Shown here: one piece after another, positions 957 through 37,860 of the stretch
Position numbering within the stretch: the stretch's first letter is position 1
Layout of the letters: each line of letters opens with the position of its first letter
Virus record (IMG/VR): IMGVR_UViG_2541047762_000007
DNA from: a virus
Taxonomy: Duplodnaviria; Heunggongvirae; Uroviricota; Caudoviricetes
Direction: 5' to 3' (one strand)
DNA length: 37,860 nucleotides
Program-made: the position numbers and the translations under genes
The notes under the pieces: model-generated
Databases searched by the model: none
Seen by the model: the letters and a program-made list of their open reading frames with translations, nothing else
Told to the model about the DNA's origin: nothing

Positions 957-1003
957 TGATGCGCCGCGCGATAAATGCACTCTATCTTGTGCGATAAATG
1001 GCA
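957..1003. repeat. Putative prophage right terminus with transposase-binding repeats
   Basis: Sequence from 957 (TGATGCGCCGCGCGATAAATGCAC...) resembles the Mu R1/R2 end as I recall it (TGAAGCGGCGCACGAAAAACGC...CGATAAATGCG) and starts with TG. GCGATAAATG occurs twice, at 968..977 and 991..1000. Confidence 0.45.
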
Positions 1004-1034
1004 TCCACGCGGCGTTTCATTATTTGAAAAAGAA

Positions 1035-1607
1035 TTACATTTCAGGTTGCGTTATGACAGTCCCAACAGGGTGGTAGCGGTAGATCGTTGACAGTCCAAT
1101 ATCATAGATAATTGCCAGCCGCTTTCTGTCATACCCTTTCTGGAGCAATCTTGCGATCTGCTCATGCTGCTCCTTCGTCAGTTTCGGGCGACGTCCTCCA
1201 ACTCTCCCTTGTGCTCGCGCAGCAGCCAGTCCTGCCAGCGTGCGCTCAACTATCAGTTCACGCTCCATTTCTGCCAGTGCACCCATCATATGAAAAAAGA
1301 ACCTTCCCATCGGAGTGCTGGTATCGATTGAATCCGTCAGACTGCGAAAATTGACACCTTTTGCGCGTAGCTCTTCTGTGAGAGCAATGAGGTGTTTCAT
1401 TCTTCTACCCAACCGATCCAGCTTCCAGACCACCAATGTATCCCCTCTTTTAAGGCACTTTAAAGCGCGTTTCAGGCCTGGTCGTTCCGACTTGGTTCCG
1501 CTCATTTTGTCCTCAAAAATCTGTTCACATCCTGCGCACATTAATGCATTGCGTTGCAAATCTGTGTTTTGGTCATTTGTTGACACACGTATGTAGCCAA
1601 TCAGCAT
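1035..1607 (-). CDS. gin: Gin/Pin/Hin-family serine DNA invertase
   Basis: Translation from the ATG at 1607 (MLIGYIRVSTNDQNTDLQRNAL...GRRPKLT...) closely matches my recollection of Mu Gin and e14 Pin. The ORF-track start at 1736 is probably an upstream artefact. Confidence 0.9.
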   Translation of the reverse strand: MLIGYIRVSTNDQNTDLQRNALMCAGCEQIFEDKMSGTKSERPGLKRALKCLKRGDTLVVWKLDRLGRRMKHLIALTEELRAKGVNFRSLTDSIDTSTPMGRFFFHMMGALAEMERELIVERTLAGLAAARAQGRVGGRRPKLTKEQHEQIARLLQKGYDRKRLAIIYDIGLSTIYRYHPVGTVITQPEM

Positions 1608-1673
1608 TAAAAATACTCCCTTTTGAGTGGTTAAAGTACTGAGATAATGTGGGGAGGATTTGAGAGATAAACG

Positions 1674-1889
1674 TTGGTTTAGGAGAAGGCTCGGCGCTAC
1701 CCGTTGGTGTGCCTGTTCCGTGGCCCACCGCCACACCGCCAGCAGGCTGGTTAAAGTGCGACGGGCGCGCCTTTACAAAAGAACAATATCCTGTTCTGGC
1801 CAGAGTCTACCCGACCCTCCGTCTTCCCGATTTACGCGGTGAGTTTATCCGTGGATGGGACGACGGGCGCAAAGTTGATACAGGACGTA
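1674..1889. repeat. Left inverted repeat of invertible tail-fibre segment (gix-like site at 1664..1687)
   Basis: About 216 bp here is the near-identical reverse complement of 3061..3279. Its outer end (gagataaacgTTGGTTTAGGAGAA) resembles the Gin/Hin crossover half-site consensus. Confidence 0.7.
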
Positions 1890-2191
1890 AGTTGCTGTCC
1901 GCACAAGGGGCAACGCTGTTAAGAACAGCAATGCTGGATTATTATAACCAGGACACTACGGGAACCTCGGGGATAGTCGGCATGGGATTCAACAATGAAG
2001 ATTCCATTACAGACCTTCGTGAGGGCAGCTTTAAAATGCCGGACGGGACAACATTCAGCAATCCTGCCATGGCAATGTCAGACAATGGTATGCAGGCTAC
2101 TATTCTGACCTCTATCAGAAGCGGGTATGCGAAGGGTATCACTGTCAGACCCCGTAGCATTGCACTTAATTACATTGTGAGGGCAGTTTAA
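1709..2191 (+). CDS. Alternative tail-fibre C-terminal cassette (Sv'-like), promoterless in current orientation
   Basis: The first ~60 aa are nearly identical to the region of the 2812..4398 fibre that begins ~150 aa from its C-terminus (PVPWPTATPPAGWL...LRLPDLRGEFIRGWD), then diverge. It lies inside the invertible segment on the opposite strand. Confidence 0.7.
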   Translation: MPVPWPTATPPAGWLKCDGRAFTKEQYPVLARVYPTLRLPDLRGEFIRGWDDGRKVDTGRKLLSAQGATLLRTAMLDYYNQDTTGTSGIVGMGFNNEDSITDLREGSFKMPDGTTFSNPAMAMSDNGMQATILTSIRSGYAKGITVRPRSIALNYIVRAV

Positions 2192-2805
2192 TGAGTAACA
2201 CTGCAGTTCTGGATGAAAACGGTATCGCCACTGTAGCGGGCGATATCACTGTATATCACTATGACGAGGAAACCCGGGAATACACCTCATCCTCTGTGGA
2301 GTATCTCGCCCTTGGGGTGGGTACTCCGGCACATTCGTGCGCCGATGCACCGCCGGAAGCAATTTCGGGTTACGTGGTTTGCCGGACTGCCACGCTGAAC
2401 GGGTGGGAGCATGTGCCTGATCACCGCGGCGAGACGGTATACAGCACGGAGAACGGTAACCCCGTTCTGATTACCCAACCGGGTGATTACCCGGCGGACA
2501 CCACCACAAAACAGCCAGCCACGCCATGGGATACCTGGAACGGTGAGGCGTGGGTAACCGATACTGAACGGCAGCGAGCCGCAGAACTGGAGGTTGCCAG
2601 ACAGCAACGCCAGCAACGGGTGAAACAGGCGATGGCGTCCGTCGATCTTATCAACCTCAAACTGCGTGCTGGTCGCAGTCTGAAACCAGAAGAAACGGCA
2701 AAACTGAACGCCGTGCTGGATTATATCGACGAGCTGAACGCACTGGATATCAGCAAGGCACCTGAAATCAGCTGGCCGGAAGCGCCACTGGCGCTTGCCG
2801 GCTGA
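2191..2805 (+). CDS. Tail fibre assembly protein (Tfa/U-like)
   Basis: Position directly after the alternative fibre cassette (TAATG overlap), ~200 aa, composition typical of lambda Tfa / Mu U chaperones. Confidence 0.75.
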   Translation: MSNTAVLDENGIATVAGDITVYHYDEETREYTSSSVEYLALGVGTPAHSCADAPPEAISGYVVCRTATLNGWEHVPDHRGETVYSTENGNPVLITQPGDYPADTTTKQPATPWDTWNGEAWVTDTERQRAAELEVARQQRQQRVKQAMASVDLINLKLRAGRSLKPEETAKLNAVLDYIDELNALDISKAPEISWPEAPLALAG

Positions 2806-2811
2806 ACGGTA

Positions 2812-4398
2812 TCACGCCGCCCTCACGATATAGTTAAATGCGATATTGCGGGGGCGAGCTGATACATAAGCCCACCAGTCATATCTTTGTGCACCTTTAG
2901 AGGATGCATCAAATATCCACTTTTTGCCATTTATGACCCCCAGTTGATTAGAGGTTAAAGCGTCACCAAATCCGTATTGTGTAGAGCCGAGCGAACTGAT
3001 ATCTCCGGTATTATTATCATCAAAACCGGATACGATAGTCCCTTCCTGAAATGAAAGTACCGTACGCCCGGTATCAACCTTGCGACCACCGTCCCATCCA
3101 CGGATAAACTCACCGCGCAAATCGGGAAGACGGAGGGTCGGGTAGACTCTGGCCAGAACAGGATATTGTTCTTTGGTGAACGTAGCTCCGTTGCACTGTA
3201 ACCAGCCTGCTGGCGGTGTGGCGGTGGGCCATGGAACCGGTACACCAACAGGCAATGCAGAGCCTTCCCCCAAACCAAGGTAATTGAGGACATCTTTTAT
3301 ACTGCCCTTAGCGATAATAGCGCGACCAATAGCTGTAAGGGTTGCCAGCGCTGCGCGGTCTGCTCCGGTAAAATAAGGCAACCGATCTGCTGCAGTGGCA
3401 AGTCCTGCCAGAGCAGTGAGCGTGGCATCTGCCGGTTGTTTTCCGTTTGCCAGATCGTATGCAGCCTTGACGGCCTTTGGTGTGGCGGCCAGCGTTTCAG
3501 ACGTGCTGTTGATGGCGCTGCTCAATTGTACGGTGCCTTTTGCCGTCAGCGAGGCAGCAGGCACTCCCGTTATCTGACTCCACGGGTGAGTGTGGCTGAC
3601 GGGCGCCTTGCCGGCTGCAAGGTCGTATGCAGCCTTGACGGCCTTTGGTGTGGCGGCCAGCGTTTCAGACGTGCTGTTGATGGCGCTGCTCAATTGTACG
3701 GTGCCTTTTGCCGTCAGCGAGGCAGCAGGCACTCCCGTTATCTGACTCCACGGGTGAGTGTGGCTGACGGGCGCCTTGCCGGCTGCAAGGTCGTATGCAG
3801 CCTTGACGGCCTTTGGTGTGGCGGCCAGCGTTTCAGACGTGCTGTTGATGGCACTGCTCAGTTGTACGATCCCTTTACGGGTCGTTGTTGCATCCTGGGC
3901 TGTGTATTTTCCCCGGGCCAGATCATACGCGATTTTCACAGCCTTCGGCGTGGCAGCCTCAGTTTCTGATTGACTGTCCGTGGCACTGCTCAGCTGTACG
4001 GTGCCTTTTGCCGTCAGCGAGGCAGCAGGCACTCCCGTTATCTGACTCCACGGGTGAGTGTGACTGACGGGTGCCTTGCCGGCTGCAAGGTCGTATGCAG
4101 CCTTGACGGCTTTTGGTGTGGCGGCCAGCGTTTCAGAGGTGCTGTTGGTGGCACTGCTCAGTTGGGTGAACCCCTTAGCTGTCAGTGTCGCGTCCGGGTG
4201 GTTACGGGAACGTACGTGTTCAGCCAGTGACTGTGCGGCTTCCTCCGTTTTTTTCTTCAGCCATTTCGTCCTGTTTGCCAGTTGCCGGGGGGCTCGATTT
4301 GATATCCCGTCTGCACCACCCAGAACCGGATCTGATGTCTCCAGTTGATAGATATTTTCTTCCCACTTTTCTGTTTCATTCAGGTTTCCCATAATCAA
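2812..4398 (-). CDS. Tail fibre protein with internal tandem repeats
   Basis: 528-aa ORF with repeated fibre motifs (TAKGTVQLSSAxxSTSETLAATPKAVKAAYDLA, SHTHPW). C-terminal part lies inside the invertible segment. Position matches Mu S. Confidence 0.9.
   Translation of the reverse strand: MIMGNLNETEKWEENIYQLETSDPVLGGADGISNRAPRQLANRTKWLKKKTEEAAQSLAEHVRSRNHPDATLTAKGFTQLSSATNSTSETLAATPKAVKAAYDLAAGKAPVSHTHPWSQITGVPAASLTAKGTVQLSSATDSQSETEAATPKAVKIAYDLARGKYTAQDATTTRKGIVQLSSAINSTSETLAATPKAVKAAYDLAAGKAPVSHTHPWSQITGVPAASLTAKGTVQLSSAINSTSETLAATPKAVKAAYDLAAGKAPVSHTHPWSQITGVPAASLTAKGTVQLSSAINSTSETLAATPKAVKAAYDLANGKQPADATLTALAGLATAADRLPYFTGADRAALATLTAIGRAIIAKGSIKDVLNYLGLGEGSALPVGVPVPWPTATPPAGWLQCNGATFTKEQYPVLARVYPTLRLPDLRGEFIRGWDGGRKVDTGRTVLSFQEGTIVSGFDDNNTGDISSLGSTQYGFGDALTSNQLGVINGKKWIFDASSKGAQRYDWWAYVSARPRNIAFNYIVRAA
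3061..3290. repeat. Right inverted repeat of invertible tail-fibre segment (gix-like site at 3265..3290)
   Basis: Reverse complement matches 1674..1889. TTCCCCCAAACCAAGG at 3265..3280 is the inverted partner of the left site. Confidence 0.7.
3440..4200. repeat. 168-bp (56-aa) tandem repeats within tail fibre gene
   Basis: Three near-identical units are in register at ~3455, 3623 and 3791, followed by two more diverged units. The plus-strand shadow ORF 3436..3969 shows the same period. Confidence 0.85.
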
Positions 4399-4973
4399 CT
4401 GCTCCCGTGGTTATAACTGCCATCATGGATGGCAGTATTGTTATAGCGAATGGCCACAGACTGATACTCCAGGCTGGCCAGATGGCAGCGGGCCGGTGCA
4501 AATGCAGCCAGCGTCTGACGCAGCATCGCGGCCTGATCGTTAGTAATGGGCTGTTTCAGAATAACGCGATAAACTGCCCAGGCGGCTGCATCTCCATGAA
4601 CAAACAGTCCGTTATAGCTGCGATTGCCGTCGTAACTGAGACGACCTGTGCCTTCAATCAGATCCACTTCACCAAAGCCAAAACGGCGGATAACTTCCCG
4701 GATTGACCACGGCGTCCCTTTATACCGGTGCAGTTCGATGGCTGCTTTTATAAGCATGCGGCGAACATCGTCCGATTCCGCCAGCTCCCAGCCATCGCCA
4801 GACAGTGAGAACTGCTCGCCCAGCCATGGCAGCGCGGAACTGTCGACGATATCGACGAGAAAGACCATCAGTACGCTCAGGTCGATGTTATCCAGCCGTC
4901 CTGCCAGTCTTCCCAGCGTCCTGAGACTGATATCACCCTCAAGCGGTGGCGGGAGTTGTAATGGCTCAGTCAT
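4395..4973 (-). CDS. Baseplate protein (P2 gpI / Mu gp48-like)
   Basis: Size and position between the baseplate J-like gene and the tail fibre; overlaps its neighbours. Confidence 0.7.
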   Translation of the reverse strand: MTEPLQLPPPLEGDISLRTLGRLAGRLDNIDLSVLMVFLVDIVDSSALPWLGEQFSLSGDGWELAESDDVRRMLIKAAIELHRYKGTPWSIREVIRRFGFGEVDLIEGTGRLSYDGNRSYNGLFVHGDAAAWAVYRVILKQPITNDQAAMLRQTLAAFAPARCHLASLEYQSVAIRYNNTAIHDGSYNHGSS

Positions 4974-6069
4974 CAGACACTCCAGTCATGTTAAGAGTGA
5001 TTGCCGTACAGTTTGCCCATTCGTTTTCTGCCACCACCCGCAGTGCCGGTGTCACCAGTTCAACCTGGTACACCCCGGAAACGGACAATGCACTGATAAT
5101 CTGGCTGGGGACAATATCGCGCCCCAGCGTGGCGGCACGTGATGCCACCCAGTTCTGTATGGCGCTGTTAGCGGCATCTTTTACAGACCTGGCATCCTGA
5201 TCACGATAGATCGTAATCCTGGCTTCAATGGTGTAATCCACCTTCACTGGTGTTTTAGCCCGCACTGTATCAGTGAGTGGCCTGACTTTCTCATCAGAGC
5301 AGAAACTCTCTACCAGCGTGAGAACACCGCCGTCCGGCAGACCGGTACTGAGCAGCGGATACAGATCTACGGTCCCGGGAACCGGGGAAAGCACAGCAAC
5401 ATCGACAATGTTGGGATGGGCCTGCATGGCATGAAAGCGGTATGCGCCACGGCTTCCGGCATTGGTGAATGACTCCGGGGCCAGCCTGATACGCTCCCGG
5501 AGCCTGTCATCGTCTTCCTGTTCTGAACCGCCGGAACTGGCCGTCAGATTGCTCACCAGCAGGTCGACGTTATCAATCTCATCGAGTAACTGACTGACCT
5601 GCGCAGGTTGCCAGCCGTTACCAGCGGTACCGGGTTCGGTACAGGTGGACGTGACATTGACCAGCAGCAATCCGGCCTTCAGTACCACATCTGTATCGGT
5701 GGCAAAAATAACGCTGTCGGAAGCGCTGACGCGGGTGCCTGCCGGGATCAGCACATCAATGGCCAGTGCCTCATCTACGGAGAACTGGAGCGTGGTGGTG
5801 GCAGGCTGCGCGGCAAGACGGTATACACCGACCAGTTCACCGAGGTAATCAATCATCGGCTCACGGGCAAAGGCGACCAGATTCTGCTTTGCTGCCTCCT
5901 GTACCGCAACCCTGACCAGCATTTCGCGATAGGCCCACAGATCAATCAGCAGACGTTCTGCCTGTGCCGGGTACAGCGTTTTGCCGGTATCCGCTTCATA
6001 CTTCGCAATCATTTCTGCCGTGATTTTGTCGGCATCGCGTTCAATAAAATCGGGTTCTGTCAGCGCCAT
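4966..6069 (-). CDS. Baseplate J-like protein (Mu gp47 / P2 gpJ-like)
   Basis: 367 aa, position and composition match baseplate J family; translationally coupled to neighbours. Confidence 0.8.
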   Translation of the reverse strand: MALTEPDFIERDADKITAEMIAKYEADTGKTLYPAQAERLLIDLWAYREMLVRVAVQEAAKQNLVAFAREPMIDYLGELVGVYRLAAQPATTTLQFSVDEALAIDVLIPAGTRVSASDSVIFATDTDVVLKAGLLLVNVTSTCTEPGTAGNGWQPAQVSQLLDEIDNVDLLVSNLTASSGGSEQEDDDRLRERIRLAPESFTNAGSRGAYRFHAMQAHPNIVDVAVLSPVPGTVDLYPLLSTGLPDGGVLTLVESFCSDEKVRPLTDTVRAKTPVKVDYTIEARITIYRDQDARSVKDAANSAIQNWVASRAATLGRDIVPSQIISALSVSGVYQVELVTPALRVVAENEWANCTAITLNMTGVSDD

Positions 6070-6407
6070 AGCAGCTCCTGAGTCCGGGTCTGTCCGTCTG
6101 AGCCTTTCCAGCTCACCCGGAGCGTAAGATGTTCGCCGTCGACGGCGGGTTTAACTGACATAAGCTGGCAGCGGGGCTCCCAGCGCCGGATGGCATCGAC
6201 GGATTCGCGCACCACATGCGGAATGGCCCGGTCTACAGGCCAGTCGATATAAAGATGCAGATTGCTGCCGAACTCCGGGCGATGCGGGTCGCTGCCGCGG
6301 GGAGTCCGCAGGATAATTTGAATCGCCTGCCGGATATCATCCAGCCCCCGGACAATTTCGCCGGGAGCCTGCAGAGTTGGTTGCCAGAATACTGAGGTCG
6401 TTTTCAT
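6060..6407 (-). CDS. Baseplate wedge protein (gpW/gp25-like)
   Basis: 115 aa with gpW/gp25-like features (GSDPHRPEFGS...), located upstream of the J-like gene. Confidence 0.75.
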   Translation of the reverse strand: MKTTSVFWQPTLQAPGEIVRGLDDIRQAIQIILRTPRGSDPHRPEFGSNLHLYIDWPVDRAIPHVVRESVDAIRRWEPRCQLMSVKPAVDGEHLTLRVSWKGSDGQTRTQELLWR

Positions 6408-6532
6408 GGAGGCAGTATTGCCCCCGTGCGGGAACGCTGATATTAAAGGGATTTAAAAAAACGTAAAATGGTTGAGCTTATTGAAAAACAGCCAATATTG
6501 TTAATTAATAATCACCTGAAAACGGAGGTTTT

Positions 6533-6718
6533 ATGAAGAAAAAATTTTTTCAGATGACAAATAAAAGTCATTTCATTAACCCGGAACACATCGTTGAAGC
6601 ATACTTTACAGTTAAAGGTACTTTCGAAATAACACTTTCAACAGGTAAGAAAATTCAACTCGACGAAAGCGAAAGCAAGTATCTGATGGATGTATTTGAT
6701 TTTGAGAAGCCACTCTAA
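6533..6718 (+). CDS. Small AT-rich moron ORF (61 aa), unknown function
   Basis: Antisense to the surrounding baseplate operon. Strong SD (ACGGAGG) 5 nt before the ATG, AT-rich upstream region with -10-like TAAAAT, and an intrinsic terminator immediately downstream. Confidence 0.55.
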   Translation: MKKKFFQMTNKSHFINPEHIVEAYFTVKGTFEITLSTGKKIQLDESESKYLMDVFDFEKPL

Positions 6719-6727
6719 TTGCCAGTG

Positions 6728-6751
6728 AGGCCGCCCGGTGCGGCCTTTTTT
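6728..6751 (+). terminator. Rho-independent terminator of the moron ORF
   Basis: GC hairpin AGGCCGC-CCGGT-GCGGCCT followed by a T-run (6746..6751). Confidence 0.75.
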
Positions 6752-6755
6752 CATA

Positions 6756-7352
6756 TCAATGAGAATGGTGATTAGAGTTAGAGCCATCAGACAGCATACT
6801 GCCCGTGGCATGGGCATTCCCTTTAATCTCGATATTGCCATGGATGGTCGCGGTAACACCTTTACCACCAGAACCCGCCATGCCTCCTTCGTAAATCAGC
6901 TTTCCCCTGACACGCAGCTCTCCGGTAAGTTCGGTTTCCGGTGCGTCAATCGTGGCTTTCTGTGTTTTCAATACCACATCAGCACCACACTCAATGACAA
7001 TATGCTCAATGCCGCCCCGGATGGTCAGAGTGTGCGTCTTCCGGTTGTAGCTGTACTCTGCACCATCAGCAAACCGGGTTCCCCGGATATTTTTGTCACT
7101 GAACGGTGGTTTATCGACGTCTGAATACACCGCGCCCAGAATAACACCATCCTCGCCGTTGGCATCGAGCAGCACCTCAACCTGCTCCCCCACGTCAGGG
7201 AGCCAGTAATCTTTGTTATCCTGGGTATTGCGCTGCAGCACGTTAAGCCAGTTTGTGCGCAGGTTATCGCATTCAGGCAGACGAACGCGGGCCTGAACCC
7301 TGTCGGCATCAACGGCACTGACCGTACCGACCTGACGAGTGACACCAGTCAT
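6756..7352 (-). CDS. Baseplate spike/hub protein (P2 gpV / Mu gp45-like)
   Basis: 198 aa with glycine-rich, His-rich C-terminus typical of gpV spikes; sits between the gpD-like and gpW-like genes. Confidence 0.75.
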   Translation of the reverse strand: MTGVTRQVGTVSAVDADRVQARVRLPECDNLRTNWLNVLQRNTQDNKDYWLPDVGEQVEVLLDANGEDGVILGAVYSDVDKPPFSDKNIRGTRFADGAEYSYNRKTHTLTIRGGIEHIVIECGADVVLKTQKATIDAPETELTGELRVRGKLIYEGGMAGSGGKGVTATIHGNIEIKGNAHATGSMLSDGSNSNHHSH

Positions 7353-8503
7353 TTTTTCTTCTCCTTAATCACCGTCGATGTACTGCCATCCGGGTGATAA
7401 ACCGTGAGTTTCTGAGTTTTTTGTTTTTTCCCTCTTGTGACTGGCCCCCGTGCCACTTCCAGCTCTGTGGTGTAGCCGCTGTTACGGTCAAACGCATGGC
7501 GGGCAGTGGTTATGAGCCATGGCCCGGATAACTGCCCAAAACTCACCAGTTCAATTTTGTTGCCTGCTGTCAGTTGAGGTGTTCCCGTCAGCGTCAGGGA
7601 GCCGTTCTGCTGGTATTCGTTATGTCTGGCCAGTGCTGAATCCGCTTTAATCCGGGCACTGTCCGGGTCGCTGACGCGGCTGTTAACTTTAAGTGAGTCA
7701 GCGCTGGTAACCTTACCACCTTTGAGCTTTTTGTCGCTTTCACGGGTACCACCATCAGCTTCGTAGACGATCAGTTTTTTACTGCTGCTTTTCTGGTGTT
7801 TTACCTTTGCAGATTTATAGACCCGGTTGATGGTGTCACGCAGGGAAAAGCGGGCCACATCCTGCGGTTTTAACTGCCTGACCGGCTCCTGACTGCGCAG
7901 TGTGGCCAGATGAGAAAAAATCAGCTGGTCACTGACCACTTTCACTGCATAACCATACTCGCTGGCCAGCCGGCGCAGAAAACCCACGTCGGTTTCAGCA
8001 TACTGGGTCACCCGGTCGATTCTGATGGACTCAATGCTGCCCACCAGTTTCAGCCGGTGCTTTCTGGCAATCCGCCCCGCAACAGCTGCCAGCGTGGTGT
8101 TCTCAAAACCACGACTGGTTTTAGTCCGCAGGGCACTGTTAACCGAGGTGGCCACCCCACGGATAGAAACAACGGAAGCGGGCGAACTCACTTCGATCTC
8201 GTCTATAGAGAACGTACCGCAGGACAGCAGCTTCTCGCCCTGATAGCCCATTTTCAGCGTCAGCGTGTCACCCTTGCCCGGATACCATTTATCCAGCCAG
8301 CGGCCATCGGTGTCGTCCAGCTCCACCTCAATGGTATCGGACTCATTTTTGATGTTATCGCTCCAGGTCACACGGGTGACATAAGGCGCGATATCAGAGG
8401 TGATGTTTTTCTGCAGATACCACAGAGTGAACACCGGTGTCAGCACATCGCTGACGCCGGTTAACGCTGATGTGACTTGCGCAGTGCTGTTTATCTCAGC
8501 CAT
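7349..8503 (-). CDS. Baseplate hub / late control D-like protein (Mu gp44-like)
   Basis: 384 aa, position downstream of tape measure and upstream of the spike gene. Confidence 0.75.
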   Translation of the reverse strand: MAEINSTAQVTSALTGVSDVLTPVFTLWYLQKNITSDIAPYVTRVTWSDNIKNESDTIEVELDDTDGRWLDKWYPGKGDTLTLKMGYQGEKLLSCGTFSIDEIEVSSPASVVSIRGVATSVNSALRTKTSRGFENTTLAAVAGRIARKHRLKLVGSIESIRIDRVTQYAETDVGFLRRLASEYGYAVKVVSDQLIFSHLATLRSQEPVRQLKPQDVARFSLRDTINRVYKSAKVKHQKSSSKKLIVYEADGGTRESDKKLKGGKVTSADSLKVNSRVSDPDSARIKADSALARHNEYQQNGSLTLTGTPQLTAGNKIELVSFGQLSGPWLITTARHAFDRNSGYTTELEVARGPVTRGKKQKTQKLTVYHPDGSTSTVIKEKKK

Positions 8504-8706
8504 GGGGCAATATCCTCTTCTGTACGGGCTTCTTCAGCCTCAATCACCGGGATCAGTAACAACAGCCCGGAGGGCAGCACCGGCGTGATGGCCACGTGCG
8601 GATTGGCGGCAATAATCCGGGGATAGCCCAGCGGGTCACCGTAGTACTGCCATGCCAGCGAATCCCAGCGCTCTCCGTCACGGGTAACATGTTCAAGAAA
8701 CATCAC
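8491..8706 (-). CDS. Tail protein X-like (LysM-like)
   Basis: 71 aa, pattern resembles P2 gpX (W..YYG.P......ANP). Confidence 0.55.
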   Translation of the reverse strand: MMFLEHVTRDGERWDSLAWQYYGDPLGYPRIIAANPHVAITPVLPSGLLLLIPVIEAEEARTEEDIAPWLR

Positions 8707-27060: not shown

Positions 27061-27062
27061 CA

Positions 27063-29418: not shown

Positions 29419-29470
29419 ATTTTCCACATATGCAACAGGTTATCACATATTGCAAAAATGGAAATGTGAC

Positions 29471-29779
29471 ATGAGTAAAGTAAATATTTCCAGTTCTGGG
29501 AGCCGCATCCTACGTGTACTCAAAGCTCTACGCGGTCATGCTCTGAACGGTGTTTCTAACGGTGAACTGGCATCAGCCCTGGGGGAGTCCCCGGCGAATA
29601 TCAATCGAGCACTTAATACCCTTATTGAAGAGGGACTGGCCATGAAATTAGAGAACGGACGTTTCGCACCGGGAATCCAGTTACTACAGATCGCCATGGC
29701 TCACAGTCACGAGATGGCGCGTGCACAGGATCGTATTAACGAAATCAACCAACGAGTTATTTCAGGTAGTCGTTTGTAA
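29471..29779 (+). CDS. Winged-helix DNA-binding protein (putative regulator)
   Basis: Start taken at ATG 29471 (MSKVNISS...); wHTH-like segment LRVLKALRGHALNGVSNGELASALGESPANINRALNTLIEEGLA. Confidence 0.5.
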   Translation: MSKVNISSSGSRILRVLKALRGHALNGVSNGELASALGESPANINRALNTLIEEGLAMKLENGRFAPGIQLLQIAMAHSHEMARAQDRINEINQRVISGSRL

Positions 29780-29789
29780 GGAGTAATCA

Positions 29790-30704: not shown

Positions 30705-30707
30705 CCA

Positions 30708-32477
30708 ATGAATGCTGCCCTGACTGAACGACTGGTTTATGTCGCCCGCGCGGCACGTGACGCGGGGCATGGTAAACGCGGTGCAATATACGACGCTGCC
30801 TGTGCTGAACTTGGCATGTCCCGCGCCACTCTGCTGCGCAGGCTGAAGGAGGTCTCTGTGACTGATAAACGCAAAAAACGCGCCGATGCCGGGCGCAGCG
30901 CCCTGACCCGCGACGAAGCCGCGCTGATATCTGCCACACTGCGTGAGGCCACCCGCAAGAACGGTAAGCGTCTCTATTCCATCGCGGATGCAGTGGAAAC
31001 CCTGCGGGCTAACGGCTTTATCTCCGCAGGCAGAACAGATGAAACCACCGGTGAGTTTTTCCCGTTGTCCGAAGATGCCATCAGCCGAGCCCTGCGTAAC
31101 TATGGCCTGCACCCGGAACAACTGGATGCCCCTGCACCACATACTGAAGTGGCCAGTCTGCATCCCAATCATGTCTGGCAGATTGATGCCTCGCTCTGCA
31201 CGCTTTACTACCTGAGTAATGGACACAAAGGACTGCAGGTGATGGACAGCGCGAAGTTCTACAAGAACAAGCCCGCTAACCTTGCCCGTATCGCCAGTGA
31301 CCGCGTGTGGAGTTACGAGATTACCGACCATGCCAGCGGCTGGATTTACGTTGAGTATGTGACGGGTGCGGAATCCGGTGAGAACCTGTGTTCTGTGCTT
31401 ATCAACGCCATGCAGGAGCGTGGCGGCGCAGACGTGCTGCACGGCGTGCCAAAAATACTCTATCTCGACCCCGGCTCGGCAAACACCGCGGGTATGACGA
31501 AAAACATGTGCCGCTCACTGGGCATTGACCTGATAGCGCACAAGCCGCATAACGCCCGCGCCACCGGACAGGTGGAAAAGGCGCGTGACATTATCGAACG
31601 CAAGCTGGAGCCGGGTCTGAAGTTCCGGCCGGTTCACAGTCTGGAAGAACTCAACGCGCTGGCCGCGAAATGGCGCAGCCACTTTAACGCCACGGCTGTT
31701 CACAGCCGCCACGGTAAAACCCGCACGGATATCTGGCTGAAGATTACTACTGAGCAGCTGAAAAAAGCGCCTTCCGTTGAGGTATGTCGTGAACTGGCTG
31801 TGGCGGCACCAGAACTCCGCAAAGTCACGCCAAAACTTCGTGTCTCGTTCCGGGGCACTGAATTTGACGTATCAACGGTACCGGGCGTACTGGTCGGTGA
31901 AAAACTGATGATTACCCGTAACCCGTGGCGCAGCGATGTGGCACAGGTGGTTCTGACCGGTGAGGACGGCCACGAGACGTTCTTCCTGGTCGAAGAGGTC
32001 AGAAAGAACGAGTTTGGCTTTGCTGAAGGCGCGGCGGTATTTGGCGAAAGTTACAAAGCCCTGCCGGAAACACCGGCGCAGACGGCGGCAAAAGAAACTG
32101 AAGCGCTGGTCACCGGTACAGACAACGCCACAGATGCAGCTGCCGCACGCAAGGCGAAGGCGCTGCCGTTCGGCGGGCGGCTTGACCCGTATAAACATAT
32201 TGATGACGCCACACTTCCGGCCTATATGCCGAAGCGCGGTCAGGCCTCTGACGTACGCGGGCCGCGCACTGAACAACGTCCCATGACTCATGTGGAGGCC
32301 GCGAAAGCCCTGCGCGATAAGTTCAGCGCCGACGGCCTTACCTGGACGCCGGAACATTACCGCCAGTTAACGGCACAGTACCCGGACGGCGTACCGGAAG
32401 CCGCACTGGATGAAGTCATGGCCACGCTGACCACGCCGGCACGCAGCAGTGTTATCAGCATTGTTAACGGCAACTGA
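30708..32477 (+). CDS. DDE transposase (Mu A-like)
   Basis: 589 aa with N-terminal HTH-like region and an integrase-type catalytic core (HVWQIDAS, LYLDPGSANTA, ATGQVEKA); followed by a MuB-like ATPase. Confidence 0.8.
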   Translation: MNAALTERLVYVARAARDAGHGKRGAIYDAACAELGMSRATLLRRLKEVSVTDKRKKRADAGRSALTRDEAALISATLREATRKNGKRLYSIADAVETLRANGFISAGRTDETTGEFFPLSEDAISRALRNYGLHPEQLDAPAPHTEVASLHPNHVWQIDASLCTLYYLSNGHKGLQVMDSAKFYKNKPANLARIASDRVWSYEITDHASGWIYVEYVTGAESGENLCSVLINAMQERGGADVLHGVPKILYLDPGSANTAGMTKNMCRSLGIDLIAHKPHNARATGQVEKARDIIERKLEPGLKFRPVHSLEELNALAAKWRSHFNATAVHSRHGKTRTDIWLKITTEQLKKAPSVEVCRELAVAAPELRKVTPKLRVSFRGTEFDVSTVPGVLVGEKLMITRNPWRSDVAQVVLTGEDGHETFFLVEEVRKNEFGFAEGAAVFGESYKALPETPAQTAAKETEALVTGTDNATDAAAARKAKALPFGGRLDPYKHIDDATLPAYMPKRGQASDVRGPRTEQRPMTHVEAAKALRDKFSADGLTWTPEHYRQLTAQYPDGVPEAALDEVMATLTTPARSSVISIVNGN

Positions 32478-32487
32478 GGAGGAAAAC

Positions 32488-33654
32488 ATGCTGGTACTGA
32501 AGCAGCAACTGAAAGAGGCCCGTATCTCACAGGCGGTGGTGGCGAGAGCTGTCGATGTTTCTGAGGCCACGCTGGCCCAGATTGTGAATCATAACGCGTG
32601 GCCCCGCACCCGCCCCGGAGAAGTGCGCCGGCGTCTTGCGTCCTGGCTGGAAAGTCAGGGGATTGATACAACGAAGAGTTTTGATGCTGTACAGGTCGCG
32701 GCCACGCCCCGTACAGCGGGTACCACAGACAAAACGAGCCTCAGTGAGGAAGAGAATATGTTACTCAAAAAACAGGTGTTATTTCCAGCAACCAAAAAAG
32801 CGTTTGGTCTTTTCCGTGACCCGTTCGCCGATGAAGCCATGCAGGGTTCTGATGATGTGTTCACCACCCCGGACATCCGCTATGTGCGTGAGGCGCTGTA
32901 CCAGACAGCCCGTCATGGTGGATTTATGGCCGTCATCGGTGAGTCCGGTGCGGGCAAATCCACGCTGCGCCGCGACCTGACTGAACGTATCAACCGCGAG
33001 AATGCGCCGGTAATTGTTATCGAGCCATACGTCATCGCCATGGAAGACAACGATGTGAAAGGAAAAACCCTGAAGGCTGCAGCGATTGCCGAAGCCATTA
33101 TCAGTACCATCGCACCACTGGAAAGCATCAGACGCAGTCAGGACGCCCGCTTTCGCCAGTTGCATCGCGTCCTGAAAGACAGCAGCCAGGCGGGGTTCAG
33201 CCACGTTCTGGTGATTGAGGAGGCCCACAGTCTGCCCGTTCCGACACTGAAACACCTCAAACGCTTTTTTGAGCTGGAGTCCGGTTTCAAAAAGCTGCTG
33301 TCCATTGTGCTGATTGGCCAGCCGGAACTGGCGACAAAACTGTCTGAACGCAATATGGAAGTCCGTGAAGTCGTTCAGCGCTGTGAGGTGGTCGAACTTC
33401 TGCCTCTGGACAATAACCTTGAAGAATTTCTGACGTTCAAACTGCAACGGGCCGGTAAACAACTGACGGACATTATGGACGCCAGCGCAGTGGATGCCAT
33501 ACGTGCCCGCCTGAGCAATCCGGGAAGTCATCGTAAAAATATGGTCAGCCTGCTGTATCCGCTGGCCGTCAGTAACCTGGTAATAGCCGCCATGAATCTG
33601 GCCGCTGAAATCGGGGTTCCACAGGTCAACGCTGACGTTGTCAAAGGGGTTTAA
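32488..33654 (+). CDS. Transposition ATPase (Mu B-like AAA+)
   Basis: Walker A GESGAGKST, Walker B-like VLVIEEAH, N-terminal HTH-like region. Start taken at ATG 32488 after GAGGAGG. Confidence 0.8.
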   Translation: MLVLKQQLKEARISQAVVARAVDVSEATLAQIVNHNAWPRTRPGEVRRRLASWLESQGIDTTKSFDAVQVAATPRTAGTTDKTSLSEEENMLLKKQVLFPATKKAFGLFRDPFADEAMQGSDDVFTTPDIRYVREALYQTARHGGFMAVIGESGAGKSTLRRDLTERINRENAPVIVIEPYVIAMEDNDVKGKTLKAAAIAEAIISTIAPLESIRRSQDARFRQLHRVLKDSSQAGFSHVLVIEEAHSLPVPTLKHLKRFFELESGFKKLLSIVLIGQPELATKLSERNMEVREVVQRCEVVELLPLDNNLEEFLTFKLQRAGKQLTDIMDASAVDAIRARLSNPGSHRKNMVSLLYPLAVSNLVIAAMNLAAEIGVPQVNADVVKGV

Positions 33655-33656
33655 TA

Positions 33657-33926
33657 ATGAAATCCACCGCAGGTATCAACCAGCAAATCAGCAAAGTGCA
33701 GTCAGCCATTATGGCGCTTAAGGCGACGAACACGGATGTACAAAGCATCACCATCAGGGGGAACAAACCTGTCATCCGCGTTTCCCGGAGTGCGCATTGC
33801 ATGCGCATGCTTGAGCAGGGAAAGGCCTGTTATCTGTATACCGGACATGACCACAGGGGATATTTCCGTCAGGGCGTTTTCGAACTGCACGGCTGTCGCG
33901 TCGTGTGGCCGGAATCTTTGTGGTAA
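33657..33926 (+). CDS. Hypothetical early protein (Kil-like position)
   Basis: 89-aa ORF between B and gam. Confidence 0.45.
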   Translation: MKSTAGINQQISKVQSAIMALKATNTDVQSITIRGNKPVIRVSRSAHCMRMLEQGKACYLYTGHDHRGYFRQGVFELHGCRVVWPESLW

Positions 33927-33953
33927 TCAGCACAACCGGAGAAATCATAAAAT

Positions 33954-34484
33954 ATGGCAAAAAGTACAAAAGGGGCAAAACGTATCAAGTCCGCAGCGGC
34001 ACTCTGGGTACCGGGGACACGCGAAGAGGTCATTGAGGGCATCAGACTGCTCGGTGACGCACAACGTGAACTGGTCAGGGCTGAAACAGAAATGAATGAC
34101 GCCATTGGCGATATCACCGCACGTTATGCCCCGCTCACCGAGAGCCTGAAAAAACGCATGGCCGAACTGCAGTCCGGTATTCAGACATGGTGTGAGGCAC
34201 ACCGTGATGAACTGACCGGCAACGGGAAGGTGAAGTTCGCTAACCTCACCACCGGCGAGGTGCAGTGGCGAAACCGTCCGCCATCAGTCAGTATCCGTGG
34301 GGCGGATAATGTTATTGAATTACTGAGACGTCTGGGGCTTGAGCGCTTTATTCGTGTAAAAGAGGAAATAAATAAAGACGCTATCCTGAATGAAAAAGAG
34401 GCCGTGAAAAATATTCCCGGTATTTCCATTAAAAGCGACATTGAGGATTTTTCAATAATTCCTTTTGAGCAGGATGTGCAGTAA
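33954..34484 (+). CDS. gam: Host-nuclease inhibitor Gam (Mu Gam-like)
   Basis: Translation closely matches Mu Gam as I recall it (AKRIKSAAA...EMNDAI...WCEA.RDELT..GKVK.ANL.TG.V.WR.RPPSVSIRG...GIEDFSIIPFEQ). Confidence 0.9.
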   Translation: MAKSTKGAKRIKSAAALWVPGTREEVIEGIRLLGDAQRELVRAETEMNDAIGDITARYAPLTESLKKRMAELQSGIQTWCEAHRDELTGNGKVKFANLTTGEVQWRNRPPSVSIRGADNVIELLRRLGLERFIRVKEEINKDAILNEKEAVKNIPGISIKSDIEDFSIIPFEQDVQ

Positions 34485-34526
34485 ACACACCACGTTAATT
34501 ATTTAATAAAAACATTTTCTTTTTTA

Positions 34527-34563
34527 TTCCGGCGTCAGCGCCGTGGGCTTCTGCACGCCGGAA
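34527..34563 (+). promoter_or_regulatory. Stem-loop downstream of gam, preceded by an AT-rich tract
   Basis: 9-bp stem TTCCGGCGT/ACGCCGGAA with a 19-nt loop, preceded by a T-rich/AT-rich tract (34490..34526) and followed by the SD of the next ORF. Confidence 0.4.
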
Positions 34564-34581
34564 ACAGAGGAGAATTAAATT

Positions 34582-34776
34582 ATGATATTTAAATGTATTC
34601 AGTGCGAGAGGGATATAACAGCCCTGCGTTTTCACAGCGCCATCGCCGTGATGTCCGGTAAATACCACATCCCTGCGGTACGCGTCACCCTGGTCTGCCC
34701 GTACTGCAGCCAGCATTTTTCGGCAGATGTGCCCGTCATGGAATTCTCCCGCCCTGACAGGGAGGACGCGCAATGA
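34582..34776 (+). CDS. Small zinc-ribbon-like protein
   Basis: 64 aa with CxxC (CIQC) and CPYC pairs; SD GAGGAG upstream. Confidence 0.5.
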   Translation: MIFKCIQCERDITALRFHSAIAVMSGKYHIPAVRVTLVCPYCSQHFSADVPVMEFSRPDREDAQ

Positions 34777-35045
34777 TTACCCCACAGGAAGCACGACAGC
34801 GCACCCGAACTCTTGTTGAACACTATGTCAACGAGTGTGAATGCCGCGACCTCACCGATGTGAAGCACGTCCTGACGGCGCTAATCAGCATGGCCACGCA
34901 GGCCATTGTGGCAACCAACGGAAAGGAGGCTGCCCTGCAGGTACTGATGAACACACTCACCCACACGGCAGAGCACGAGGTGCCGTACCGGGTGGAAACC
35001 ACTGCAGAAGGCGGCCTGAACATCACCGTCGACCGGAAACACTGA
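34773..35045 (+). CDS. Hypothetical early protein
   Basis: 90-aa ORF with ATGA overlap to the upstream gene. Confidence 0.45.
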   Translation: MITPQEARQRTRTLVEHYVNECECRDLTDVKHVLTALISMATQAIVATNGKEAALQVLMNTLTHTAEHEVPYRVETTAEGGLNITVDRKH

Positions 35046-35054
35046 GGGCGCGGC

Positions 35055-35357
35055 ATGACACGGAACACCGAACTCACCCGCACCGCCCTCTACCGTCTGG
35101 CCCTGCAGCGTTTCGGGCCGGACGCACAGGCCCTGAAACTGACAGAAGAGGCCGCTGAACTGGCGGCCAGTGCCGCCCGCAACCTGAACGGACAGGGCAG
35201 CGAAAGTGACCTCGCGGCAGAGCTGGCAGACGTGGAAATCATGACAGAGCAGCTGCGCCTTCAGGGAATGGACCGGCTGATTGACTTCCACAAACGGAAA
35301 AAACTGGAACGCCTTGCCGCACGGCTGGGCGTCTCATACACCGGAGAAATCATATGA
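35055..35357 (+). CDS. MazG-like nucleotide pyrophosphohydrolase domain protein (tentative)
   Basis: 100 aa with EEAAEL and ELADVE motifs in the spacing typical of small MazG-like proteins. Confidence 0.45.
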   Translation: MTRNTELTRTALYRLALQRFGPDAQALKLTEEAAELAASAARNLNGQGSESDLAAELADVEIMTEQLRLQGMDRLIDFHKRKKLERLAARLGVSYTGEII

Positions 35358-35737
35358 ACCGCACCGAACAGACGCCACAACTGACGCCGGAAGATGCTGC
35401 ACAGCGTATTCGGGTACTGGAAGACGAAAACGAATACCTGCGCAAGAGATTTGAAGAGGTGGACCTGTACTTCGGGCGCAATCTGGTCGTCATGAAAGCT
35501 GCAGTGATTGAGTGGCGGGCCACCGGTGATGCCAGGAACGGCATGGCGTGGATTTACAACACCCTGTGTGGGCCGGGCGAACTGCCGCCGCAAGAGGAGA
35601 AAGAGGCACAGGAATACTTCAACAGGGAAACTGAAGTTATCGACAGAAAACTGGCTGCCCTGTACCACTGGTTCAGGAAATACCACAGGACACACGCCGC
35701 ACCTGACCAGACCACCACAGGAGGTACCAGTGACTGA
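35354..35737 (+). CDS. Hypothetical early protein
   Basis: 127-aa ORF, ATGA-coupled to the upstream gene. Confidence 0.45.
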   Translation: MNRTEQTPQLTPEDAAQRIRVLEDENEYLRKRFEEVDLYFGRNLVVMKAAVIEWRATGDARNGMAWIYNTLCGPGELPPQEEKEAQEYFNRETEVIDRKLAALYHWFRKYHRTHAAPDQTTTGGTSD

Positions 35738-35945
35738 CACCATTATGGAAATTGTGGTATGGGCTTTCCTGCTTACTGGTATAGCCGTGTGCATCTGCGC
35801 CGGATTCGCCCTGGTTGCCCTGCTGACCCACGTGGTGACGCAGTGGTTATGGGAAAAGCTTAAAGCAGCATACAGCCTGAAAGAGCTGTCCGACGCTGTT
35901 CGGGCATGGGAACAGCAAAAAAATACCGGAGATACTGAACAATGA
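35730..35945 (+). CDS. Small membrane protein (one TM)
   Basis: GTG start after AGGAGG; hydrophobic segment VVWAFLLTGIAVCICAGFALVALL. Confidence 0.4.
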   Translation: MTDTIMEIVVWAFLLTGIAVCICAGFALVALLTHVVTQWLWEKLKAAYSLKELSDAVRAWEQQKNTGDTEQ

Positions 35946-36625
35946 CAGACCAGGATAAGCACATTGAGAAACTGAAAAAGTTGCTGGCGCTGGCAGCATC
36001 CGGCAACCCGCATGAGGCTGCTCTGGCACTGCGCCGCGCCCGTAAACTGATGGATGTTCACGGCATCACACATTCCGACATCGCCATGAGTGATATTGAT
36101 GAAACCATCAGTCACTACTGGCCGACAGGCAGCCTCCGTCCGCCGCGCTACATGCTGGGCCTGATGAACATCATCCGCGAGGCATTTGGTGTTAACTCCA
36201 TCATTCACCCCGGCACATATCCGGGTGTGGGGTTCTACGGCAACCGGGAACGGGCCGCACTGGCCGCGTACACCTGGGAAGTGCTGGCCCGTCAGCTGAA
36301 AAAGGCGCGTCAGCAGTATATCAGTGCACAGAACAAAAGAATAAAAACCGCCACCCGCACCAGCCGTGGAGACCAGTTTGCTGAAGGCTGGGTGCTGGCC
36401 GTTATCAGTGAAATACAGTCCTTCGCCCTGACCGATGACGAACGTGAACTGATGCAGCAGTGGCTGGAACATAAATACCCGCAGACGCAAACCACCAGGG
36501 CGCGTAAACCGGGAAGAAGTCGCAATGGCGACGCCTCTCGCTATGCGGGGTTTCGAGAAGGGCAGAACGTCAGACTGCACCGACCGGTCAGTGGGCGGGA
36601 ACAGCAGAAACTGGAGGCCAGATGA
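35942..36625 (+). CDS. Hypothetical protein (DUF2786-like N-terminus, from recollection)
   Basis: 227 aa; N-terminal KHIEKLKKLLALAASGNPHEAALALRRARKLM. Confidence 0.5.
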   Translation: MTDQDKHIEKLKKLLALAASGNPHEAALALRRARKLMDVHGITHSDIAMSDIDETISHYWPTGSLRPPRYMLGLMNIIREAFGVNSIIHPGTYPGVGFYGNRERAALAAYTWEVLARQLKKARQQYISAQNKRIKTATRTSRGDQFAEGWVLAVISEIQSFALTDDERELMQQWLEHKYPQTQTTRARKPGRSRNGDASRYAGFREGQNVRLHRPVSGREQQKLEAR

Positions 36626-36852
36626 TTACGTTATCAGGTAACAGCCGGAAATTAAAAGCCTGCCGAATATCTGCCAGATACCTTTTTGCCCGCGCCTTTT
36701 TTAAGAACGTCAGGCCGGGGATCACAATTGGTGTTATTGCCGGACGCGAACAGGTTGAAAAATACATGTCAGGTGCATGGTGGAATAAAGACCCTGTCAT
36801 TGCTGCCCGTAATATTCATATCAGTTGGGGGGATATTCAGAATGATGACTGA
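36622..36852 (+). CDS. Hypothetical small protein
   Basis: 76-aa ORF with ATGA overlap to the upstream gene. Confidence 0.35.
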   Translation: MITLSGNSRKLKACRISARYLFARAFFKNVRPGITIGVIAGREQVEKYMSGAWWNKDPVIAARNIHISWGDIQNDD

Positions 36853-37057
36853 ATCTGTTGTATGTGCCCTGTTCTGGTATTGTTTTGTCGGTTGGTGTAC
36901 TGCTGAACTGCACCGCCGTTCAGGGTTTTATTCACGTTACAGTGGTGCCGGTTACTGGATTAGCTGGTCGGTGATGTTCCTGTGCTGGCCTGTGGTACTT
37001 CCTTTATATGTCGATTATATCGGTGATGCAGGCAGAAGGAGCAACGATGATGACTAA
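36842..37057 (+). CDS. Small membrane protein (two hydrophobic segments)
   Basis: ATG after a G-rich SD; hydrophobic segments VVCALFWYCFVGW and WISWSVMFLCWPVVLPLY. Confidence 0.4.
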   Translation: MMTESVVCALFWYCFVGWCTAELHRRSGFYSRYSGAGYWISWSVMFLCWPVVLPLYVDYIGDAGRRSNDDD

Positions 37058-37499
37058 ACAACGTCTTATCCAGCTCATTCATATTGCCCGTAATGAACTG
37101 GGTATGGATGAAGACACCTACCGCCAGATGTTACAGGGGCTGACCGGTAAAGCCTCAACCAAAGGAATGGATACCACACAACTAAACTGCGTGCTGGAAT
37201 CCATGAAAAGGAAAGGCTTTCGCGTTAGGCCTGCAGGAAAAGCCAGCTCCGGTTTACCGCTGGATAACCATCCGCAGTCCAGGAAAATCCGTGCGCTATG
37301 GCTTGAAATGGCTGCTGCCGGCATTGTTCGTGACCGTTCAGAAAATGCATTAGCGCGGTGGATCAAGCGGGAAACGGGCATCAGCGCCCTGCGCTGGCTC
37401 AATACTGAACAGGCAAGCAGTGTTATTGAGAAACTGAAGAAGTGGCAGCGCAGAGCTGCGGGAGTAAAACATGAGCGACCTGAATCAGTTTCGAAGTAA
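37047..37499 (+). CDS. gemA: GemA-like protein (Mu gp16 family)
   Basis: Start at ATG 37047 after AAGGAG; pattern TKQRLIQLIHIARNELGMDEDTYRQML...TGK.S matches the GemA family; immediately precedes the Mor-like gene as in Mu. Confidence 0.65.
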   Translation: MMTKQRLIQLIHIARNELGMDEDTYRQMLQGLTGKASTKGMDTTQLNCVLESMKRKGFRVRPAGKASSGLPLDNHPQSRKIRALWLEMAAAGIVRDRSENALARWIKRETGISALRWLNTEQASSVIEKLKKWQRRAAGVKHERPESVSK

Positions 37500-37860
37500 A
37501 GGGCCGGAACTCCTGGTGGAACTGGCACAGCATACCTCTGAGACCGTTCGCGAGATTATTGATATTGAGCCCGCAATTGCCGACCAGATTGGTCAGGCCG
37601 TCGCGAACCGCATGATGCAGGTCTGGGGCGGGCAAAACGTTTATTTCCCGATGGGCATGGTATGGAAGGTCAGTCAGCGCGACCGGGAAATCTTCAGGGA
37701 GTTTAACGGACGTAACCACCATGAACTGGCCCGCAAATTTGGTGTTTCGCTTCAGTGGGTCTACAGCGTGGTTAAGCGGGTAAGAAAAGAAGAACTGGAT
37801 CGGATGCAGGGCAAGCTATTTGCTGATGAACCCGATGTAGATACGGAGAAAAAAGAGTAA
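37471..37860 (+). CDS. mor: Mor/C-family transcriptional activator (likely Mor)
   Basis: C-terminal pattern VYFPMG..W..SQRDREIFREFNGRNHHELARKFGVS..WVYSVVKR matches the Mu Mor/C family. Stop codon is at the last three bases of the window. Confidence 0.8.
   Translation: MSDLNQFRSKGPELLVELAQHTSETVREIIDIEPAIADQIGQAVANRMMQVWGGQNVYFPMGMVWKVSQRDREIFREFNGRNHHELARKFGVSLQWVYSVVKRVRKEELDRMQGKLFADEPDVDTEKKE

Follow-up and report, generated by a model that had tools for sequence, protein, structure and literature searches.

When early and late genes of a Mu-like phage run away from each other, are they the two halves of one prophage, a rearranged Mu, or two elements that happen to be neighbours? The question is raised by the 37,860-nucleotide stretch of IMG/VR virus record IMGVR_UViG_2541047762_000007 (the whole stretch analysed here, hereafter the window). 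A preliminary description had noted that early and late operons diverge from an internal immunity region, had stated that Mu keeps them co-directional with only the repressor opposed, and had suggested a likeness to BcepMu-type transposable phages. The open reading frame (ORF) map and the domain scans confirmed the strands almost to the base. All late genes, from the holin to a Gin-like invertase, lie on the minus strand at 957-26418, and all early genes, from a helix-turn-helix (HTH) gene to Mor, lie on the plus strand at 29230-37860; between the two arms are a repressor and two membrane-protein genes (minus strand) and one truncated gene (plus strand), with a GC content of 42-44%. We are highly confident that positions 957-37860 belong to one transposable myovirus prophage of BcepMu type, about 37.07 kb long and complete here but for its last ~160 bp, inserted in the Escherichia coli gene dgcM.

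In the Mu record (NC_000929) all genes but c, gp15 and the G(-) copies are indeed on one strand. Relative to Mu, the entire repressor-to-Mor block of the window is inverted, and the result is a pair of transcription units that both point outward from immunity genes inside the element. The gene order of BcepMu (NC_005882) diverges in the same way: genes 1-16 (among them Mor, GemA, ATPase, transposase, gp10 and the HTH protein gp16) run one way and genes 17 (repressor) to 52 (tail fibre) the other. Matches to BcepMu were found for 36 of the 54 window ORF products, in strictly collinear mirror order, with late-arm matches on one BcepMu strand and early-arm matches on the other, while blastn gave 15 high-scoring segment pairs (HSPs), all on one strand and monotonic. 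The two phages have in common the divergent arms, a repressor on the strand of the late genes, GemA and Mor as the outermost early genes, an rve transposase, an ExeA-like ATPase (59%), a DUF3102 protein, an SLT lysis cassette, a Mu-type head joined to a P2-type tail, a late-side TG terminus with similar repeats, and a sequence box upstream of the holin and protease genes. Because the divergent arrangement is matched gene for gene in BcepMu, PhiKM (PQ738613), KP12 and four E. coli prophages, it is not a chance ORF pattern. It is also already known, and published as characteristic of transposable phages of the BcepMu and B3 types, in both of which the early operon is inverted (PMC5977238); BcepMu and phiE255 have the same functional clusters (PMC2920897).

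The late-side boundary of the element falls within the window.

1-956, minus strand: 3' 956 bp of host dgcM, a diguanylate cyclase gene with GGDEF and PAS domains, found in nearly all E. coli genomes
957-1000, no strand: late-side (Gin-side) terminus, 5'-TG, with two GCGATAAATG repeats at 968-977 and 991-1000, 23 bp apart

Positions 1-956 match nearly all E. coli genomes, and the sequence from 957 onward is found at many different loci. The first base of the element is 957 (5'-TG, TGATGCGCCGCGCGATAAATG...), and the prophage breaks dgcM at about codon 92; the intact dgcM of strain C 237-04 (L089) aligns from window base 1. That strain also carries an independent insertion of the same phage type, ~30 bp upstream of its intact dgcM. 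Loci L003, L005, L006 and L008 have the same late-side end sequence as the window, and the late-side end of BcepMu, TGAAGCGCGGCGCGATATTTC, closely resembles it. The other terminus had been placed beyond the window and nearest the transposase. It does lie outside, since the stop codon of Mor is the last codon of the window and the Mor-side terminus (...CAAGTCTAATCA) follows 161-163 bp further on in four relatives; the transposase gene, however, is ~5.5 kb away and does not adjoin it. In the relatives this end reads ...CATTTATCTCAAGTCTAATCA and forms, with the late end, inverted TG...CA termini that share G(C/A)GATAAATG motifs, each terminus resembling the corresponding end of BcepMu.

One junction of the window copy is visible, and its target duplication is predicted to be GCTTTC at 951-956. 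We compared four independent E. coli insertions at different sites in complete genomes, those of MS20655 (in a yccM-like gene), CE0011b (emrA), O78 strain 3 (cbrA) and M9682-C1 (gspL). In all four, a single host gene is split by the whole unit from invertase to Mor, with 6-bp direct repeats on either side (GGTCGT, ATGCGT, AGAACG and CCCAGG). In these relatives the element behaves as a single unit, with a second terminus and a 6-bp target duplication, that inserts at random. The target duplication of Mu is 5 bp, and one of 6 bp is consistent with Tn552-type transposases.

Could the element nonetheless belong to the Mu lineage proper, as a diverged Muvirus-like phage that transposes by the chemistry of Mu and runs its three-step early-middle-late cascade? 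The genes of the early arm are as follows.

29230-29418, plus strand: HTH protein in Cro/Ner position, 62 amino acids (aa), 45% identical to BcepMu gp16
29408-29779, plus strand: IclR-type winged HTH protein, 33% identical to BcepMu gp12
29790-30704, plus strand: DUF3102 protein, 41% identical to BcepMu gp10
30708-32477, plus strand: DDE transposase with an rve core (the only Pfam domain), of BcepMu gp9 type and not of MuA type
32449-33654, plus strand: AAA+ transposition ATPase, ExeA-like (AAA_22; PHROG "DNA transposition protein"), 58.7% identical to BcepMu gp8
33657-37057, plus strand: remaining early genes (Gam, small unknowns, DUF2786/DUF7168)
33954-34484, plus strand: Gam (Phage_Mu_Gam domain), 62% identical to Mu Gam
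35942-36625, plus strand: DUF2786/DUF7168 protein
37008-37499, plus strand: GemA (Pfam GemA), 45% identical to BcepMu gp2
37471-37860, plus strand: Mor/C-family activator (Pfam Mor), 54% identical to BcepMu gp1

Like Mu, the element is a transposable temperate myovirus of ~37 kb with Gam, GemA, Mor, TerL, portal, F and G homologues, a Mu-type portal among them, and with Gin, an invertible fibre segment, a G/I gap near the genome centre and four late gene blocks; protein identities to Mu reach 76% for Gin, 62% for Gam, 49% for TerL and 47% for F. Yet only nine of the 54 products match Mu (Gin, a fibre fragment, G, F, portal, TerL, Gam, GemA and Mor, all on one Mu strand), and none matches MuA, MuB, c, Ner, C, Com/Mom or the Mu tail genes. 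By blastn, 3.2% of the DNA aligns to Mu, in few HSPs that lie on opposite strands for the two arms. The transposase is 68.3% identical to BcepMu gp9 over 581 of 589 aa and 57% identical to the transposases of B3-like Pseudomonas phages, and its search matched no Mu sequence; neither it nor the ATPase had a tblastn match in Mu at E<=1e-3 or contains a Mu-specific Pfam domain. The ATPase gene is directly downstream of the transposase gene, as in BcepMu, and its product is the functional counterpart of MuB. The first early gene, which had been called Ner-like, is so by position and not by type: it encodes a Cro-type HTH protein that also lacks a tblastn match in Mu at that threshold. Mu further differs in its co-directional early and late genes, in having MuA and MuB and not rve- and ExeA-type proteins, a Mu-type and not a P2-type tail, C with a middle operon, and com/mom. 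Target duplications are 6 bp in the relatives of the window and 5 bp in Mu, and the window proteins scanned against Pfam include one Mor/C-family member and no second. On these grounds, membership of the Mu lineage is very improbable.

B3-type phages are siphoviruses, whereas the window encodes a P2-type sheath and tube and not a B3-like siphovirus tail. The resemblance to Pseudomonas phage B3 and its relatives lies in the 57% identical transposase and in an early operon inverted relative to that of Mu (PMC5977238).

A second alternative, two adjacent elements, had been raised in the preliminary description itself. It would place a P2/Mu-hybrid prophage (957 to ~27000) beside a Tn552-like transposon or a second Mu-like remnant (~28700 to 37860). 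The arms do differ in their ancestry signal, the late one with a P2-type tail and the early one with an rve/Tn552-type transposase, and a low-GC, highly variable block separates them. The late arm comprises the following.

24057-26418, minus strand: lysis cassette (Holin_2-3 and SLT domains) that also encodes an Rz-like lipoprotein and membrane proteins, collinear with BcepMu gp21-gp26
26068-26418, minus strand: holin (Holin_2-3)
25325-26065, minus strand: SLT-domain transglycosylase (endolysin)
15351-24057, minus strand: Mu-type head and packaging module (Pfam Phage_Mu_Gp27, Portal_Mu, Phage_Mu_F, Phage_tail_S, Phage_Mu_Gp36 and Gp37), 44-67% identical to BcepMu gp27-gp38; F and G homologues of Mu, a decoration protein, a Mu gp36 homologue and a Gp37-family (PF09646) head-tail protein are among its products
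23512-24057, minus strand: TerS of Mu gp27 type (Pfam)
21920-23515, minus strand: TerL, 49% identical to Mu TerL
20424-21920, minus strand: Mu-type portal (Portal_Mu)
17830-18945, minus strand: protease/scaffold (PHROG head maturation protease)
16862-17815, minus strand: major capsid protein
4395-15361, minus strand: P2-type contractile tail and baseplate, namely I, J, W, V, D, X, U, tape measure, E chaperone, tube and sheath (Pfam Tail_P2_I, Baseplate_J, GPW_gp25, Phage_base_V, Phage_GPD, Phage_tail_X, Phage_P2_GpU, PhageMin_Tail, Phage_TAC_7, Phage_tube and Phage_sheath_1), 31-76% identical to BcepMu gp39-gp51
13934-15361, minus strand: P2-type sheath (Phage_sheath_1)
9587-12538, minus strand: tape measure (PhageMin_Tail)

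Among its domain-scanned proteins there is neither an integrase nor a second transposase, and the sole late activator, Mor, is encoded in the early arm. Both ends of the element, the Mor-side one as seen in relatives, are inverted copies of the same motif, and the records of PhiKM, KP12 and BcepMu contain both arms. We reject two adjacent elements, as extremely unlikely, on the four independent insertions, in each of which the complete Gin-to-Mor unit splits a single host gene (emrA, cbrA, gspL or the yccM-like gene) with one 6-bp duplication.

How general the divergent layout is was assessed by a scan of the transposase family, with one genome per species, which gave 80 loci in Enterobacterales, Burkholderiales, Neisseriales, Pseudomonadales and others. 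At 12 of the 80 the late genes were out of reach; 64 of the 68 informative loci are divergent, with late genes upstream on the opposite strand, and the remaining four (L040, L042, L046 and L070) have the Mu layout, with late genes downstream and no change of strand (Mor followed by holin, TerS and TerL). Both layouts thus occur within one transposase lineage, and in this family the divergent one is the rule, with exceptions. A search for the terminus motif in the four collinear relatives found none. A third alternative is a canonical Mu-type prophage with collinear arms in which this strain alone has the early block turned round, or else a mis-assembly that inverted the block. We rejected it as exceedingly improbable, for although a simple inversion of the repressor-to-Mor block turns the Mu layout into that of the window, and the four loci do show the collinear layout, the window layout is conserved in four independently assembled complete E. 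coli genomes, PhiKM, KP12, BcepMu and the 64 divergent loci, the Mor-side terminus directly follows Mor in relatives, and the putative breakpoints have no inverted repeats or insertion sequence (IS) elements.

If the window is a BcepMu-type prophage, how would its two arms be switched on and off? The region between them offers candidate components.

28718-29179, minus strand: cI-type HTH repressor (HTH_31 and HTH_3), co-directional with the late genes, 38.5% identical to BcepMu gp17
29154-29182, plus strand: candidate early promoter TTGACA-17-CATAAT, an 11/12 sigma-70-like match, facing the early operon
29160-29179: candidate operator in the spacer of that promoter, a perfect 8-4-8 palindrome, ATGAGAACAATAGTTCTCAT (ATGAGAAC-AATA-GTTCTCAT)
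27044-28721, minus strand: two membrane-protein morons downstream of the repressor, with a terminator-like hairpin (27044-27061) at the end
27735-28721, minus strand: first membrane protein, 328 aa, phrog_10002, with one transmembrane helix
27063-27653, minus strand: second membrane protein, 196 aa, phrog_12025
26549-27025, plus strand: truncated gene, phrog_3787, 158 aa here and 242 aa in PhiKM, cut at the edge of the variable block

The true start of the repressor is possibly a GTG near 29143. In the lysogen, the repressor would be made together with the two downstream morons and would sit on the palindrome inside the early promoter, a plausible operator for this neighbouring repressor; its transcript would end at the 27044-27061 hairpin before the lysis genes, insulating them. 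Derepression would then release the rightward operon, in which the Cro-position HTH protein, the rve DDE transposase, its ExeA-like AAA+ partner and Gam are followed lastly by GemA and Mor. The transposase may bind the repeated G(C/A)GATAAATG motifs at the TG...CA termini and carry out replicative transposition. In one relative, a simple scan of the stretch from Mor to the terminus gave no terminator-like site, and early transcripts may therefore run on into the DNA of the host.

Homology to PhiKM stops at 27013, and positions 27013-29178 form a replaceable block of low GC content (42-44%) that comprises the repressor allele and the two membrane proteins and truncates the phrog_3787 gene. In other strains its place is taken by genes for a nucleoid-associated protein, a 401-aa protein and a Dam methylase. 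The two membrane proteins have no Pfam or PADLOC family, and a PADLOC search for anti-phage defence in the variable block returned no more than weak HTH or marginal matches. Exclusion or lysogenic conversion are possible roles for them.

The late arm carries a recurrent sequence, TAA-N5-TTTAAWATC, at four places.

26469-26485, minus strand: late box 1 (TAACGCGCTTTAAAATC), upstream of the holin; candidate Mor-dependent late promoter
19001-19017, minus strand: late box 2 (TAAAGCAGATTAAAATC), upstream of the protease/scaffold gene and preceded by a terminator-like hairpin (19078-19110)
13084-13100, minus strand: late box 3 (TAATCTCCTTTAATATC), upstream of the E tail chaperone and tape measure genes and preceded by a terminator-like hairpin (13107-13122)
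6439-6455, minus strand: late box 4 (TAAATCCCTTTAATATC), upstream of gpW, J, I and H

All four copies are on the late strand and in intergenic gaps, against 0.08 expected in the window, a contrast inflated by a pattern that was derived from the sequences and then counted. Across species, the box was found upstream of the holin at 25 of 47 loci and in none of 47 control stretches; it was not found upstream of the holin in the Pseudomonas loci. The boxes recur at the same places in KP12, and upstream of holin and protease in BcepMu, with box 2 at the same position in the alignment of both. Boxes 3 and 4 also share ATACTGCC ~20 nt downstream.

The four boxes are probably Mor-dependent late promoters, which would drive the lysis/packaging, head, tail and baseplate/fibre blocks. 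With no second Mor/C-family gene among the scanned proteins, the one present probably acts alone, and it would do so in trans on the four leftward promoters. Margolin and colleagues are said to have described, in 1989, four C-dependent late promoters in Mu; the four boxes parallel these and thereby suggest a direct early-to-late cascade. We therefore put forward, tentatively and at somewhat less than even odds, that BcepMu-type phages may use a two-step cascade without a Mu-style middle operon, in which the single Mor/C-family protein, encoded at the outward tip of the early operon and 11-31 kb from its targets, directly activates four late promoters through the box.

Box 2 lies in the gap between G and I, where the window shares with BcepMu both the box and a terminator-like hairpin. 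In this hairpin after gene G (window 19078-19110; BcepMu, L004, 18727-18757) the loop region is conserved (TTTATAAAGG) and the stem sequence differs. The gap is at 48.8% of the window element and is central in BcepMu too, and the annotated gyrase cut site of Mu is at 48.7%. On position, we did not take the gap for a Mu-like strong gyrase site: a central place is a trivial consequence of a block inverted in place.

At the far end of the late arm lies a switchable tail fibre locus.

2812-4398, minus strand: tail fibre, P2 H-like (Phage_fiber_2 and Collar domains), with an N-terminus 49% identical to BcepMu gp52
1671-3281, no strand: invertible tail-fibre segment of 1.6 kb, bounded by 229-nt inverted repeats (1671-1899 and 3053-3281) that are 86% complementary
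1035-1607, minus strand: Gin-like serine DNA invertase (Pfam Resolvase and HTH_7), 76% identical to Mu Gin

The segment contains an alternative fibre C-terminus (1709-2191, plus strand) and a tail-fibre assembly gene (2191-2805, plus strand; Collar and Caudo_TAP domains), and the invertase would flip it to switch host range. CE0011b shows the opposite orientation, and both orientations occur among relatives. The segment has a single assembly gene, currently on the strand opposite the fibre gene, which leaves the fibre variant now expressed without a matching chaperone gene downstream of it.

How close are the relatives? PhiKM and the prophages of many E. coli genomes, such as M9682-C1, CE0011b and MS20655, are 95-99% identical to the window in nucleotide sequence over most of the element (megablast), with the same genes, divergent layout and termini; M9682-C1 also shares the immunity block and the orientation of the fibre segment. 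The window differs from them in a 299-bp insertion at 6457-6755, in its 35.3-35.8 kb segment and in its insertion site in dgcM, and from PhiKM and MS20655 in the immunity/moron block 27013-29178. Clone KP12_2 of Klebsiella phage KP12 (OM835952) is collinear from invertase to Mor at 84-89% identity and has the same late boxes, but differs in its fibre/invertible region, in several small early genes and in its immunity block, which includes a Dam methylase. A probe from the early arm has matches in 640 of the 5426 complete genomes of E. coli, and roughly one in nine of these genomes carries a near-identical prophage; the immunity block of the window itself is present in 97 genomes.

Several further observations concern these records. 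In comparison with PhiKM and M9682-C1, the 299-bp insertion separates gpV from gpW. It contains an antisense ORF of 61 aa (6533-6718, plus strand) for a LytTR DNA-binding fragment, which is also annotated in CE0011b, and a bidirectional terminator at 6727-6747. The tape measure has 983 aa in the window, CE0011b, O78 strain 3 and M9682-C1 and 821 aa in MS20655 and KP12, a difference explained by an internally repeated stretch at ~10050-11070 and implying tail-length variants. In the PhiKM record (L001), the Mor-side terminus is joined to 343 bp of host sequence at 20234-20576, with an ABC transporter permease as its annotation, and the Gin/invertible region is missing, as expected of a transposable phage packaged with host flanks or of a permuted assembly. 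The KP12 record (L002) is filed under Vequintavirinae, which its content does not fit; KP12_2 probably represents a prophage that was induced or co-purified, and not a portion of the KP12 genome. Scans of the window for Rfam families and tRNA genes gave no matches.

A number of points weigh against placing the window as an intact BcepMu-type prophage regulated in this way. The genus criterion of the International Committee on Taxonomy of Viruses is ~70% nucleotide identity over the genome, and 30.2% of the element aligns to BcepMu DNA at a mean identity of 67.9%. Similarity is thus far below the threshold, and "BcepMu-like" holds for architecture and protein homology, not for strict genus membership; NCBI files PhiKM under the genus Bcepmuvirus. 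BcepMu-like transposable phages as a group were reportedly described by Summer and colleagues in 2004 (J Mol Biol 340:49, cited in PMC5977238). BcepMu differs from the window phage in its acyltransferase at the late end and its HU/SSB-like early genes, and it is without Gam, Gin and the invertible fibre segment, which the window phage has; the lack of a G region in BcepMu is published (PMC2628397). The completeness of this copy we infer from its relatives, as the Mor-side terminus and the second copy of the target duplication lie outside the window. One of its genes (26549-27025) is truncated, and the 299-bp insertion lies between gpV and gpW. As to regulation, a single copy of the operator-like palindrome was found with three mismatches allowed, the window count of the late box has the circularity mentioned above, and the dependence of that box on Mor is likewise something we infer from sequence.

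For annotation, the element should be named BcepMu-type, not Mu-type, and its boundaries can be drawn precisely: 957 on one side, ~160 bp past the window on the other, with a 6-bp duplication. As a common, already deposited prophage with a known architecture, it has little discovery value in itself. The membrane-protein morons next to the immunity genes are a modest lead on prophage-encoded exclusion, and the inactivation of dgcM, a regulator of curli and biofilm formation, by the prophage could be a phenotype of this strain. The late box is likewise a modest lead for the regulation of transposable phages and, if the two-step cascade is true, the collinear loci L040, L042, L046 and L070 would be natural tests of how the inversion affects regulation or read-out into the host.

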